Shown: positions 4,111-60,571, numbered from the stretch's first letter. The stretch is 64,000 nucleotides of DNA from Escherichia phage vB_EcoM_G53 (MK327943.1), one strand, 5' to 3'. The notes: a model not told the origin generated them from the sequence alone. Translations and numbers: made by a program.

Positions 4111-4141
4111 TATAGTATCACATACCAAATACGTTGTAAAC
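4111..4141 (-). promoter_or_regulatory. Early (sigma70-type) promoter, minus strand, for ORF 3812-4081
   Basis: GTTTAC -35 and TACTAT -10-like element with ~17-nt spacing. Confidence 0.45.
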
Positions 4142-6865: not shown

Positions 6866-7062
6866 TTCTTCACCTTTTTGTTAATCAAACGTTTACGGTA
6901 TACAACTTTTTCTTTTGCTTTAAACTTTGACCGAGCTGTCTCGGCTTTAGTCCATAGTAATCCAACTTCTTTAGGTTGTAAACCAATTTTTTGAGCAATT
7001 TCTACGAATGAAAATCCCGCCTCATGTAATGTATAAACTTCAACTTCAGCTCTCATAATCAA
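6862..7062 (-). CDS. Hypothetical small basic protein (24.3-like by position)
   Basis: 66-aa ORF, 4-nt overlap with downstream ORF. Confidence 0.55.
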   Translation of the reverse strand: MIMRAEVEVYTLHEAGFSFVEIAQKIGLQPKEVGLLWTKAETARSKFKAKEKVVYRKRLINKKVKK

Positions 7063-19732: not shown

Positions 19733-19762
19733 ATAGTATCACACATCCATGTGTTTGTAAAC
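19733..19762 (-). promoter_or_regulatory. Early promoter (minus) for alt.-1-like ORF
   Basis: GTTTAC...TACTAT. Confidence 0.45.
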
Positions 19763-26220: not shown

Positions 26221-26236
26221 GGGAGCCGAAGCTCCC
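26221..26236 (-). terminator. Terminator hairpin GGGAGC-CGAA-GCUCCC
   Basis: Perfect stem-tetraloop. Confidence 0.5.
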
Positions 26237-26649: not shown

Positions 26650-26679
26650 TATAATAACATAACCTGTACCAAAGTAAAC
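26650..26679 (-). promoter_or_regulatory. Early promoter (minus)
   Basis: GTTTAC N17 TATTAT. Confidence 0.45.
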
Positions 26680-27093: not shown

Positions 27094-27123
27094 TATAGTA
27101 ACACATCCTACAGGAGAGTAAAC
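27094..27123 (-). promoter_or_regulatory. Early promoter (minus)
   Basis: GTTTAC...TACTAT. Confidence 0.45.
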
Positions 27124-27159
27124 ATCTTTTTAAACTTTTTCTGCCCTAAACGCACAAAA

Positions 27160-27177
27160 GGGAGACCGAAGTCTCCC
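27160..27177 (-). terminator. Terminator hairpin after 59-aa basic ORF
   Basis: GGGAGAC-CGAA-GUCUCCC followed by UUUUGUG on minus strand. Confidence 0.55.
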
Positions 27178-30731: not shown

Positions 30732-30762
30732 TATAGTATCACAACTCCACCATGTTGTAAAC
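30732..30762 (-). promoter_or_regulatory. Early promoter (minus)
   Basis: GTTTAC...TACTAT. Confidence 0.45.
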
Positions 30763-32849: not shown

Positions 32850-32889
32850 CCATAGGAGCATTATACTCTGCTCCCGAGAGTTTGTAAAC
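32850..32889 (-). promoter_or_regulatory. Terminator-promoter cassette: hairpin GGAGCATTATACTCTGCTCC overlapping -10 TATAAT, with GTTTAC -35
   Basis: GTTTAC N18 TATAAT on minus strand; inverted repeat ggagca/tgctcc. Confidence 0.5.
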
Positions 32890-34263: not shown

Positions 34264-34292
34264 CATAGTATCACCATCCTTGGTGTTTGTAA
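34264..34292 (-). promoter_or_regulatory. Early promoter (minus) for alc-like gene
   Basis: GTTTAC...TACTAT. Confidence 0.45.
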
Positions 34293-34296
34293 ACCG

Positions 34297-35430
<1,134 letters not shown>

Positions 35431-35449
35431 TCAGTTAGTTTTTTTTAAA

Positions 35450-35478
35450 TTGTACCACAATCCTTGTGGTATGTAAAC
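35450..35478 (-). promoter_or_regulatory. Early promoter (minus) for rnlA
   Basis: GTTTAC N18 TACAAT. Confidence 0.45.
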
Positions 35479-56243: not shown

Positions 56244-56289
56244 AACGTTTTATTCATTCCACTTAATTGATAGGAGTATAGTACCATTA

Positions 56290-56451
56290 TCAGTGTTGAT
56301 TGTAAACGGCTTTTTCTACGCTTTTAACGTAATTGGTATAGTCTTCCTGTTCGTACGAGTTTAAGGCTAAGAACGAGGCTAATAGTTCATTATAGACTAA
56401 AGCCTCACGCTCACGTTCGGCCTCTACTACGTTCTGAAGATTATGACTCAT
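56290..56451 (-). CDS. Hypothetical small acidic protein
   Basis: ORF with internal ATG start downstream of arn-like gene. Confidence 0.4.
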   Translation of the reverse strand: MSHNLQNVVEAEREREALVYNELLASFLALNSYEQEDYTNYVKSVEKAVYNQH

Positions 56452-57307: not shown

Positions 57308-57768
57308 TAGTAAAGGTCCTCAGAGTAAAGTTCTTTTTCATTACCACCACGTTCAATACGTACTTGTCCAGCGTAAGTTGCAATAATCATTGCTTCTTCA
57401 CGTGTCCAATAATTACTATATTGGTCAATAAACCCTTGGTCATCATCACAAACTTGTTGAGTAACTAATTGAGGTTTAACTACATCTAAAACTTCTGCCA
57501 TATCTTTAGAATAATGACGAGCACCTGGAATAATAAGAGTTCGTCCATCTTTTAATTTAAAACGGTTGGCTGCGCAGACAATTCGTCGTTGATACTTTTG
57601 GTTTTCATCCCAATACAGAGTCTGCCAACAGATTTCAGGAACTTCATCTAAAACATTTTGTTCTGTATATTCACCACCGTAAGAAGCTAATTTAGCAGCC
57701 AGACTTTCCGGAGTCTCACGCGACAAAGCTTTATCTAACAGAGCTAAACGTTCTTTAAAAGTTTTCAT
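57307..57768 (-). CDS. Hypothetical protein
   Basis: 153-aa ORF. Confidence 0.55.
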
Positions 57769-58094
57769 TTAAACCATCCTTTAATACGTTGCCAAATAGA
57801 TTTTTGTGCTTGTTTATTAACACCAATTGAACGAATAACCGGTTGTGACTGCTGATATTCTTTATAATCTTCTTTATAGATTTCGTAAGCTGCATCAACA
57901 AATGAACTGATCGCTGCCATAAAGTTTTTACGAAGACCAAATGGCGCGTCATTATTTTCACGAATAACCGTATATTGGCCTGCTTTAATCTTTACAATTG
58001 TCCCTAAATAAGCCCCGTGATACCAAATATCCCATCCTTCCTGAGTAGGTTCTGCACATTTACGAAGTTCGTTAATAATATTCAGCTTATTCAT
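57765..58094 (-). CDS. Hypothetical protein
   Basis: 109-aa ORF, 4-nt overlap with downstream gene. Confidence 0.55.
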
Positions 58095-58104
58095 TATGTA
58101 TTCC

Positions 58105-58737
58105 TCACAGTACGTTAGTTACAAGGGTAATGATTTCTTTGGAAACATTAGGGAAGTCAATGTAAGTATATTTACCACCGATCTTAATCTTAACATCATT
58201 TTCAAGAGAAGTAAACAGCTTTGATTCGGTTTCTGACATGTTGTATGCAAAGATTCTAAGAGCGCCATCTCGTCGAATTTCAATTTGGCGAATACCTAGA
58301 ACTCGTTTAGCGAATCGAACTTCCAAGTTACTACGGTTTTCACCAATTTCTTTAACTTCAACTTTATCTTTAATATTTTCAAAAACAAAGTTTGCTAATT
58401 CATGCATTTCAGGAGTAACTCCACGTGCTTTTCTAGTGTTACGTTTCTGAAGAAGTTCTGGAGCATTTTCTTGGGCAAAGAGGTCTGCAGCTTTTTGGAT
58501 AATATCCATTGCTTCGCCTGTTGCTACAAGTCCATCACCGGATTTTTCGACTAAACCTTTCTTAATCAATACACCAATGTTAGAGTTAACAACCGATGCA
58601 TTGTATTCCGCTTCCAGAGCTTCACGGACATTGGCAGCAGTGGTGAAGTTGTTCTTAATGATATAAACCATTATTGCAGCAGTTTTTTCATTCAGAGCGT
58701 TTTCAGAAGCTTTGATGATGTAAGTAACTTTAGACAT
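58105..58737 (-). CDS. motA: MotA, activator of middle-mode transcription
   Basis: 210 aa; matches recalled T4 MotA. Confidence 0.92.
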   Translation of the reverse strand: MSKVTYIIKASENALNEKTAAIMVYIIKNNFTTAANVREALEAEYNASVVNSNIGVLIKKGLVEKSGDGLVATGEAMDIIQKAADLFAQENAPELLQKRNTRKARGVTPEMHELANFVFENIKDKVEVKEIGENRSNLEVRFAKRVLGIRQIEIRRDGALRIFAYNMSETESKLFTSLENDVKIKIGGKYTYIDFPNVSKEIITLVTNVL

Positions 58738-58806
58738 TTTATTTCTCCAAATTAGTATTTTTTTTTTTGATAGGTCTATAATATCATGTTTGAAGCAAAA
58801 GTAAAC
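58722..58806 (-). repeat. Promoter/RBS/start cassette, copy 1 (upstream of motA)
   Basis: ~90% identical to 59045-59127 incl. tttagacattttatttctccaa and gataggtctataatatcatgtttgaagc. Confidence 0.8.
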
Positions 58807-58843
58807 TTTATTTTGGGCTCTTTTTCAAAAGCCCTGGTAAAAT

Positions 58844-59059
58844 TTACAAACTCATTTCTTTAATAAGGCTAATAAGTTTTGCCTTTTTAGAACGAAGCTT
58901 TTCTAAATGATACCCGTTTGAACCGCGAACAACTAAAGAATTGATTTCAACTTCTAAGAAATTTAATTCTTCAACAAGTGCTTTACGGGGAGCATTCATA
59001 CCAGGTTTAACTTTACCGAAACGAGTAGTTGTGTTTTGGGTTAATTTCATTTTAGACAT
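58844..59059 (-). CDS. Hypothetical 71-aa basic protein with motA-like 5' leader
   Basis: ORF starting MSKMK preceded by duplicated promoter/RBS cassette. Confidence 0.55.
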   Translation of the reverse strand: MSKMKLTQNTTTRFGKVKPGMNAPRKALVEELNFLEVEINSLVVRGSNGYHLEKLRSKKAKLISLIKEMSL

Positions 59060-59127
59060 TTTATTTCTCCAATTTGGTTGTTTTGTTTTGATAGGTCTAT
59101 AATATCATGTTTGAAGCACATGTAAAC
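59045..59127 (-). repeat. Promoter/RBS/start cassette, copy 2
   Basis: Near-identical to 58722-58806. Confidence 0.8.
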
Positions 59128-59153
59128 TGTTTTGTGAGGAAAAATGCACAAAA

Positions 59154-59169
59154 GGGAGCCGAAGCTCCC
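59154..59169 (-). terminator. Terminator hairpin after gene 52
   Basis: GGGAGC-CGAA-GCUCCC followed by U-rich tract. Confidence 0.55.
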
Positions 59170-59245
59170 TAATCATGTTTGTCCAACCAATACAGCCAAA
59201 TCACTAGTGCAGCTATTGCACTGAGAAATCCTAAGGCTAGGGCAC

Positions 59246-60571
59246 TCAAAGTGCCTCCAAGTCTTTAGTGTACTCTGTCACAACATCAGTAGACTTCCAA
59301 TACTCATTTTCTTCTTTCTTAGCTTTAGCTTCTTCTGCTAGTTTACGTGCTTCATCGGAAGTGATATGGAAGATGTTAAGACCTACCAGTTTATCGACAT
59401 GTTCTTTATACATTTCGATTTGTGCTAGCTCTTCGGTCAAAGCTTTACGAGTCTTGCCTTGAATCACAATTTCGCCACTGATAACTTTTTTGATGAAGTG
59501 TGCCTTAGCAAAAGCAAGTTTAAATGCTTTTTCAGATTCAAGGATTTTGTTGTCAATACGTTTCTGAACGTAAGTCTTACGGACTTCAACAAAATCTTTG
59601 ATTAAGTCCACTACGTTATCGTAGACAGCTAATTTACCCTTTTCATTAATCACTGTGATGTTTTGTGAACGACGTTCGATGAGACTAAAATCTTTCATGA
59701 TTTTTTCATGACGTAGCTCTTCATCATCAGGAAGCGAGTACTCTTTACGGAACTTCACCTTAAACCCAAAGCCGTGTTCACCGCAATCATCTTCCCACGA
59801 GATTAGACCTTTGTCTTCCAACGGGTCAAGAACCTTACTCACGTACGTTTCACGGTCGAATTTATATGGGATTTCAGTTATTTGCATTTGAGTGCGAGAT
59901 GTGAACTTGTATGTTCCGTGAATCTCATAACGCCCATCAACTTCATGTACTTCACCACGGAATTCCGGGAATTCAACTTTTGGCTTAGTGACATTTTTAC
60001 CTTGAAGAGCTTGTAATACGGCCTTTTTGACTGATTTAAAACTATGAGGCAGAATATTTGTTGCGTAACCGGTTGCAATACCAGAGACGCCATTCAAAAG
60101 AACTGTCGGAATAATAGGAAGATAGAATTTTGGTGGAATGTGTTCTTTATCTTCATGAGCTGGAGCATATTCAGTATCTTTATATACGTTATAGAAATTT
60201 TTACTTACACGAGCAAAAATATAACGAGATGCTGCAGCTTTTTGGACTGTTCGAGAACCAAAGTTGCCTTGGCCATCTAACAGTGGATAGTTGTTGTTCC
60301 ATGTGTTAGCCATCAATGCACCTGCATCTTGTGCAGAAGATTCACCATGGTGATAACCTAAATCTGCAACACCGCCTGCAATTGACGCAAGTTTATGAAA
60401 TTTTTCTTTATTACCACGAGCCAAATCTAACGCACGATGGACCACAAAACGTTGAACCGGCTTAAATCCATCAATCATGTTCGGGATTGCACGGTTTTCA
60501 ACGGTGTACATCGCATATGCTAAGGCTTCGTTATCAATAATACTTTTTAGATTACGAGAATTCAATTGCAT
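59246..60571 (-). CDS. 52: DNA topoisomerase II medium subunit gp52
   Basis: 441 aa; strong match to recalled T4 gp52. Confidence 0.96.
   Translation of the reverse strand: MQLNSRNLKSIIDNEALAYAMYTVENRAIPNMIDGFKPVQRFVVHRALDLARGNKEKFHKLASIAGGVADLGYHHGESSAQDAGALMANTWNNNYPLLDGQGNFGSRTVQKAAASRYIFARVSKNFYNVYKDTEYAPAHEDKEHIPPKFYLPIIPTVLLNGVSGIATGYATNILPHSFKSVKKAVLQALQGKNVTKPKVEFPEFRGEVHEVDGRYEIHGTYKFTSRTQMQITEIPYKFDRETYVSKVLDPLEDKGLISWEDDCGEHGFGFKVKFRKEYSLPDDEELRHEKIMKDFSLIERRSQNITVINEKGKLAVYDNVVDLIKDFVEVRKTYVQKRIDNKILESEKAFKLAFAKAHFIKKVISGEIVIQGKTRKALTEELAQIEMYKEHVDKLVGLNIFHITSDEARKLAEEAKAKKEENEYWKSTDVVTEYTKDLEAL

Follow-up and report, generated by a model that had tools for sequence, protein, structure and literature searches.

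Two early-promoter cassettes flank a small accessory gene upstream of motA in an RB69-like phage and probably mediate its deletion

We find that the gene for MotA, the activator of middle-mode transcription, and an adjoining gene for a 71-aa protein are each preceded by a copy of the same regulatory cassette, and we are fairly confident both that these are a pair of PeSL-type cassettes flanking the 71-aa gene and that recombination between the direct repeats deletes this gene together with one cassette. PeSLs are the promoter-early stem-loop cassettes of T4-type phages (Arbiol et al. 2010, PMC2839356; Comeau et al. 2014, PMC4122927), for which the published model is that two flanking cassettes recombine, so that the gene between them is cut out and a single hybrid cassette remains (PMC2839356), as with the pair that flanks ORFan192 in the comparison of RB49 with phi1 (PMC2839356; PMC4122927). 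Elements of this kind, and the part they play in gene shuffling, are already published; the instance in an RB69-like phage, at motA, is new, and in the literature searched we found no description of PeSLs in the RB69 group or at the motA locus.

The DNA analysed is a single stretch of 64,000 nt (the window), which is assignable to an RB69-like phage of the T4 type, genus Mosigvirus; the best megablast match of the region among GenBank phages is phage LH01, at 99.1% identity. Gene names, including motA, agree with annotated relatives. The genes all lie on the minus strand in the order gene 52 (the conserved upstream flank of the locus), 26-aa ORF, 71-aa ORF, motA and arn.4-like gene. The cassettes were located by blastn, a repeat finder, MAFFT and a pattern scan, and the features of the locus are as follows.

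59246-60571, minus strand: gene 52 (topoisomerase II medium subunit), a 441-aa ORF annotated in relatives as gp52 or DNA topoisomerase II
59169-59249, minus strand: 26-aa hydrophobic ORF, translated as MSALALGFLSAIAALVIWLYWLDKHD, with a TTG start that overlaps the gene 52 stop codon
59153-59170, minus strand: stem-loop B, GGGAGCUUCGGCUCCC (-15.5 kcal/mol, z -3.39); with its tail, the element covers 59139-59170
59051-59128, minus strand: cassette copy B, upstream of the 71-aa gene (-35 GTTTAC, 59122-59127; TG-extended -10 TATTAT, 59099-59104; leader; GGAG, 59067-59070; ATG TCT AAA, 59051-59059)
58844-59059, minus strand: 71-aa ORF (ORF call, 71 codons), the cargo between the two cassettes
58815-58834, minus strand: stem-loop A, GGGCUUUUGAAAAAGAGCCC (-12.3 kcal/mol, z -3.35), after the stop codon of the 71-aa gene
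58729-58807, minus strand: cassette copy A, upstream of motA (-35 GTTTAC, 58801-58806; TG-extended -10 TATTAT, 58778-58783; leader with a run of 11 A; GGAG, 58745-58748; ATG TCT AAA, 58729-58737)
58729-59050, minus strand: 322-bp unit of one cassette plus the 71-aa gene, its exact boundaries being ambiguous within the repeat
58105-58737, minus strand: motA, 210 aa, from the ORF and the annotations of relatives
57765-58094, minus strand: arn.4-like gene, 109 aa, immediately downstream of motA

The 26-aa ORF has a GGAGG ribosome site ahead of its TTG start and no match in Pfam; an 81-nt CDS is annotated at its position in phage HX01, and T4 has motA.1 there. At the same position in phage 348Ecol098PP, a different small ORF and the terminator are of Dhakavirus type while the promoter to which they are joined is of Mosigvirus type; this swap marks a second exchange, whose boundary falls at the cassette. 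At the other end of the locus, we considered a protein of Mosigvirus AV110, Gp94 or 'Emp', which has 109 aa, adjoins MotA, and inhibits Mre-dependent peptidoglycan synthesis; one neighbour of its gene is MotA, and two unknown early genes lie on the far side (2026 preprint, 10.64898/2026.09.14.751387). We rejected the 71-aa gene as Emp, since Emp has 109 aa and its neighbours match those of the arn.4-like gene instead. By length and position alone, the arn.4-like gene at 57765-58094 fits as the counterpart of Emp.

When each cassette was compared with the whole window by blastn, the minus-strand segments 58729-58807 and 59051-59128 were identical at 72 of 79 columns (91.1%), with one 1-nt gap (E ~5e-22), in good agreement with an original prediction of about 90% identity; a MAFFT alignment of the two copies agrees with that of blastn. 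The ungapped repeat finder divided the match in two, 66 nt at 85% and 39 nt at 87%, with spacings of 321 and 322 nt. Two blocks are completely identical: a 33-nt promoter core (58765-58797 and 59086-59118) and the 22-nt TTGGAGAAATAAAATGTCTAAA, which comprises the ribosome site, the start codon and codons 2 and 3 (58729-58750 and 59051-59072). Elsewhere in the 64 kb, blastn found nothing that shares more than 12-20 nt with either cassette. The coordinates first proposed for the cassettes are right to within a few bases, except that the left copy had included 7 nt of motA coding sequence (58722-58728) that are not shared, and weak similarity reaches about 9 nt further upstream than had been given.

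Read on the minus strand, each cassette consists of an upstream stop codon, a stem-loop, an A-rich stretch, the -35, the spacer, the -10, a leader of about 30 nt and GGAG-N7-ATG TCT AAA, the stop codons of the 71-aa ORF and the 26-aa ORF standing just upstream of the respective stem-loops. The spacer is 17 nt counted from GTTTAC, or 16 nt from TTTACW, with TG at its end in both copies; counted in the latter way, the two promoters read TTTAC(A/T)-16-TATTAT. GTTTAC-N17-TATNAT occurs three times in the window, compared to an expectation of 0.06. Thus the early promoter, the common leader end and ribosome site, and the MSK with which both the 71-aa ORF and motA begin can all be seen in the two copies, as the original prediction had it; the upstream stem-loops and the connection to PeSLs were absent from that prediction. 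The motA leader differs in one respect, an 11-nt homopolymer at 58760-58770 (A11 on the coding strand) that makes it 3 nt longer. All six relatives inspected at this position, including LH01 at 99% identity, read AAAACAAAT, and the run could reflect either replication slippage or a homopolymer sequencing error.

Both stem-loops are annotated as terminators in phage SA79RD. Stem-loop B is followed by the U-rich tail UUUUGUGCAUUUUU and is probably an intrinsic terminator after gene 52 and the 26-aa ORF; the pattern scan reported the palindrome at 59153-59170 on the plus strand only, without a T run, and the U-rich tail of the minus strand was read from the sequence. Stem-loop A has no U-tract, for want of which it might fail to terminate transcription. 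Transcription is predicted to terminate at the stem-loops, and both promoters would be expected to fire early on the host RNA polymerase. Folding indicates that the leaders are essentially unstructured (z -0.4 to -0.7). The duplication makes co-regulation of motA and the 71-aa gene plausible, as had been proposed, and it predicts shared translational control of the two mRNAs. RegB endoribonuclease cuts the T4 motA mRNA in its GGAG ribosome site (PMC2988021), and the consensus for RegB with S1 is a single-stranded site of 11 nt, GGAGRAYARAA (PMC1702504). Both copies read GGAGAAAUAAA, which agrees with 9 of the 11 consensus positions (mismatches at 7 and 8), and shared RegB cleavage of the two mRNAs is possible.

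The locus resembles published PeSLs in most respects. As in these, a stop codon in AT-rich sequence, a stem-loop, a sigma-70-type promoter, a ribosome site and a start codon are packed into about 100 bp; each copy runs from the upstream stop codon to the downstream start codon; and two cassettes stand around a small gene, with a single hybrid cassette in close relatives that lack the gene. The stem-loops lie upstream of the -35, as in one published subclass, and the promoters have the PeSL hexamers TTTACW and TAYWAT, with a spacer of 16 nt compared to the published N17 of the T4/PST group. The elements also form a repeated family in the 64 kb, with nine N17 promoters and two N16 promoters, and copy B precedes an ORFan-type gene; moreover, the repeat bounds a 322-bp indel with two classes of junction. 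The locus differs from described PeSLs in that it does not belong to a large hyperplastic region but lies between the conserved gene 52 and motA, in that one cassette drives a master regulator, in that the repeat enters both coding sequences by 6 nt, and in that stem-loop A has neither a U-tract nor G/C tracts. It also differs in what we can document, namely copies that evolve in concert across two genera and natural crossovers of two classes. The characterisation of PeSLs further takes in demonstrated promoter and terminator activity and mini-circles that arise when nearby cassettes exchange.

T4 itself has a comparable arrangement upstream of motA, with the MSKVTYII start, the GTTTAC -35, the GGAG ribosome site followed by an A-rich stretch and, ahead of the promoter, a terminator after a small ORF downstream of gene 52. 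In contrast to the window, T4 has a single cassette, in which the spacer and the leader have diverged in sequence.

The cargo appears to be a genuine coding gene. It corresponds to phrog_6200 in PHROGs; compared to its homologue in JS98, differences fall 17/13/34 on the three codon positions, and its length never varies. The family was found in Mosigvirus-like and Dhakavirus-like sequences only, and a search of 5.8 billion proteins yielded just 8 clusters, all of one narrow family. The 71-aa gene adjoins motA in every case examined, and in each of 93 phage records it occupies a single place, with no copies at other loci. The protein has no match in Pfam or PADLOC; profile matches in the PDB are weak and to coiled coils (E at least 0.1), and the AlphaFold model (pLDDT 76.6), a disordered basic N-terminus followed by a generic helical hairpin, has no Foldseek hit at E <= 0.001.

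The original prediction that such repeats can drive deletions is directly borne out by relatives: among close ones, about 45% are missing the 322-bp unit, no more and no less, and retain a single cassette, with two crossover positions inside the repeat. The match of the region to many close relatives breaks into two pieces whose span is shorter by about 321 bp, and in the alignments of moskry and 348Ecol098PP one cassette is fused in frame to motA. The full 481-nt module was found in 81 records, and a junction query was covered to at least 80% in 148 records; in an evenly spaced sample of 45 records, 25 had the module and 20 did not, a ratio of roughly 55:45. RB69 itself may also lack the 71-aa gene, as the homologues cited by the annotators of SA79RD suggest.

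We inspected the junction in thirteen further relatives, and the alleles without the module fall into two classes. In class 1 (n=8: moskry, mar005P1, p000v, JK45, 348Ecol098PP, F27, SQ17 and PTE-Eco05), a B-type terminator, a B-type -35 flank (which is polymorphic) and a B-type leader are joined to motA. Since the B-type leader is joined to motA, the crossover lay within the 22-nt block of ribosome site and start codon. In class 2, represented solely by phage PTK (a 5.5-kb draft contig), the upstream part is B-type, including the diagnostic ATGTGC, but the leader is the A-type CAAATACTAAT, and thus the crossover lay in the identical promoter core. Similarity of the flanks interleaves genomes with and without the module: SA79RD, which has it, and moskry, which does not, differ at 6 of 900 nt, compared to 12 between the window and LH01, both of which have it. 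Therefore, either the event recurs, or recombination moves alleles between genomic backgrounds. Most alleles without the module carry private substitutions, AACCGAA in the leader and TATAAACC after the -10; since they have these in common, class 1 may represent a single old allele that recombination has spread, and not a series of recent deletions.

The 71-aa gene is an old resident of the locus. The Dhakavirus phages JS98, VR5, Bp7 and C6 have a homologue (about 75% identity) at the same place, and their promoter core is likewise duplicated. Between the window and JS98, nucleotide identity is 72.1% in the 71-aa gene, 74.1% in motA and 72.6% in the 3' end of gene 52. Thus, the divergence of the 71-aa gene equals that of its flanks, and the gene has been at this locus since Mosigvirus and Dhakavirus split. 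T4 has motA.1 and a single cassette whose upstream context is like that of copy B, a state that reflects either insertion in the ancestor of Mosigvirus and Dhakavirus or loss in T4.

Comparison of the copies within and between these genera indicates that the two cassettes evolve in concert. The 41-nt promoter core is 95.5% identical from copy to copy in Mosigvirus and 97.6% in Dhakavirus, compared to 90-92% for counterpart copies between the genera. From the leader to codon 3, the copies are 86% identical in Mosigvirus and 60% in Dhakavirus, compared to 68-72% for counterparts between genera, and each of the A and B leaders is most similar to its own counterpart in Dhakavirus. The same promoter core is present at motA of Marfa (Klebsiella), Merlin (Citrobacter) and X20 (Serratia), and the motA of Marfa also carries the exact start block TTGGAGAAATAAAATGTCTAAAGTTACTTAC. 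Since the core stands upstream of motA in these other genera, the cassette is native to motA. The Dhakavirus 71-aa gene starts with ATG AAT/AAC AAG (MNK) behind a ribosome site of its own, whereas its Mosigvirus counterpart starts with MSK; the translation start of the Mosigvirus gene was overwritten from motA. The original prediction that the cassette was copied by recombination is thus upheld by three observations: the greater likeness of copies within a genome than of counterparts between genera, the MNK and MSK starts, and the native association of the block with motA. In Bp7, the spacer of the motA ribosome site, GGAGATACAAAATG, matches that of its own 71-aa-gene copy and not that of JS98 motA; it is another patch copied between the two cassettes. 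In the Bp7 record (1322-1956), the annotation also divides motA between two CDSs, 1322-1531 and 1531-1956, a sign of a possible frameshift or sequencing error.

We propose the following history. A copy of the promoter core would have served the 71-aa gene since before the split of Mosigvirus and Dhakavirus, and gene conversion or recombination would have kept the two copies alike. In Mosigvirus, the copied tract reached through the ribosome site and the first three codons, changing the start from MNK to MSK. Homologous recombination between the direct repeats, 322 bp apart, could then remove the 71-aa gene and one cassette, leaving a single hybrid cassette to drive motA, and this deletion would have occurred in nature at least twice, by different crossover points. 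The recombination machinery would presumably be the phage's own, and re-insertion, or unequal exchange between co-infecting phages, might also take place.

We considered that the likeness of the two copies might be no more than convergence on a strong T4-type early-promoter consensus (UP element, -35, TGn, -10 and GGAG), with no copying at all. Indeed, the consensus of T4 early promoters extends beyond the hexamers (PMC2988021; PMC1524935), and the motA promoter core is conserved in several genera. Nevertheless, we regard convergence as very improbable. The other early-type promoters of the window, nine with N17 and two with N16, match the pair in hexamers or in 12-20-nt cores only, and most of them differ in spacer length and consensus; because the nine N17 promoters differ in this manner, the likeness is not a by-product of the promoter consensus. 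The pair is also alike at non-consensus positions of the spacer and leader and in codons 2 and 3, substitutions specific to one genus, or even to one phage, occur in both copies of a genome, and the change from AAT AAG to TCT AAA requires three substitutions within 6 nt. Even harder to credit is the reading that the 5' end of motA was duplicated in tandem and that the 71-aa ORF is no separate gene but a decayed remnant of the duplicated coding sequence. Although both ORFs start with ATG TCT AAA behind an identical ribosome site, the proteins are alike in MSK only (BLASTP E 2.1), the length of the 71-aa ORF is conserved, and its substitutions are in excess at the third position. Moreover, the Dhakavirus homologue starts with MNK, and therefore the common start is secondary. 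We rejected the ORF as a decayed duplicate of motA, given that it has no similarity to MotA.

The polarity of the event deserves more weight. If the state without the module were ancestral in Mosigvirus, as in T4, the 322-bp module would have been inserted, possibly more than once, by recombination with a circular donor or a co-infecting phage. Such an origin would account for the single cassette of T4, with its upstream context matching copy B, and for the private substitutions of alleles without the module, which are missing from copy B of genomes that have it; the PeSL model permits reversible insertion as well (PMC2839356). We nevertheless consider insertion unlikely, though less so than either of the foregoing explanations. 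The 71-aa gene occupies the same locus in Mosigvirus and Dhakavirus, with divergence to match that of its flanks, the A and B leaders are each closest to their own Dhakavirus counterparts, and the A-type leader of PTK must derive from a genome with the module. Furthermore, the junction expected of a circle or tandem duplication (A-type leader to codon 4 of the 71-aa gene) had no exact match in IMG/VR, and the best 15 GenBank phage records listed match it as two pieces only, the normal arrangement; circles are, however, unlikely to be present in assembled genomes, and the missing reciprocal product also counts against deletion by exchange between the cassettes. Thus, we favour deletion over insertion within Mosigvirus, because the divergence of the 71-aa gene keeps pace with that of its flanks and because PTK has an A-type leader.

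Deletion between short direct repeats has a precedent in T4 itself, where, in the classical rII studies, the DNA between direct repeats a few hundred bp apart was reportedly deleted with precision and one copy of the repeat was kept. The repeats at motA differ in being regulatory cassettes of about 80 bp, and here the product retains a promoter and ribosome site for the downstream gene. Because the cassettes recombine through the very sequence that supplies the promoter and ribosome site, every product of exchange should stay functional; T4-type phages could in this way gain and lose small accessory genes with the expression of essential neighbours intact. Although current understanding of the shuffling mechanism is unchanged, the locus stands out for a clean deletion polymorphism, two distinguishable crossover classes, a copied tract that extends into coding sequence and the involvement of a master regulator. 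It offers a ready assay for short-repeat recombination and for the lengths of gene-conversion tracts in RB69-like phages, and spontaneous deletion variants at motA are to be expected in genome engineering and in phage therapy stocks.

Since the neighbour is motA, the switch to middle-mode transcription, the state of the module could alter MotA dosage. Both spacers contain TTTTGCTTCA (58788-58797 and 59109-59118, minus strand), which resembles the MotA box and ends 7 bp from TATTAT. A MotA-dependent middle promoter has (a/t)(a/t)(a/t)TGCTT(t/c)A at 12 +/- 1 bp upstream of the -10, and there is no TAnnnT at 11-13 bp from the motif in either copy. We therefore rejected a middle promoter, with TGCTTCA 7 bp from the -10 instead of 12 +/- 1. 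TGCTTYA is common in the window (62 matches compared to 26 expected). Conservation of TTTTGCTTCA ahead of motA extends to Mosigvirus, Dhakavirus and Marfa, and Merlin and X20 have near matches; the motif might serve autoregulation or be a mere part of the conserved promoter. There is a slim chance, less than we allow for insertion, that the duplicated cassette is a MotA dosage switch and that TTTTGCTTCA is an operator through which MotA shuts off both early promoters. If so, phages with the module would have motA behind two tandem early promoters, and read-through past stem-loop A could raise or prolong MotA synthesis, whereas phages that lack it would have one promoter only for motA.

The window contains further early-type promoters. 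TTTACA-N17-TA(C/T)(A/T)AT occurs nine times, compared to 0.24 expected, and the eight of these on the minus strand are listed first:

4112-4140, minus strand: N17 promoter
6954-6982, minus strand: N17 promoter
19733-19761, minus strand: N17 promoter
30733-30761, minus strand: N17 promoter
32860-32888, minus strand: N17 promoter
34265-34293, minus strand: N17 promoter
35449-35477, minus strand: N17 promoter
56278-56306, minus strand: N17 promoter
26651-26678 and 27095-27164, minus strand: two more N16 early cassettes that resemble the motA pair

In several of the N17 promoters, the spacer between -35 and -10 includes a palindrome, such as ACACATGGATGTGT or CCACAAGGATTGTGG, and in most of them a GAGGA ribosome site follows the -10 at a distance of about 16 nt; this family looks like the PeSL subclass with its stem-loop between -35 and -10. 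One N16 cassette holds GGAGAATAAAATG, which matches the T4 RegB optimum GGAGAAUAAAA exactly. Ahead of the other stands a hairpin, GGGAGACTTCGGTCTCCCTTTTGTGCGTTT, that is closely like stem-loop B, and the 70-nt upstream segment with this hairpin folds at -20.7 kcal/mol. The exact sequence of stem-loop B, GGGAGCTTCGGCTCCC, is found again at 26221-26236.
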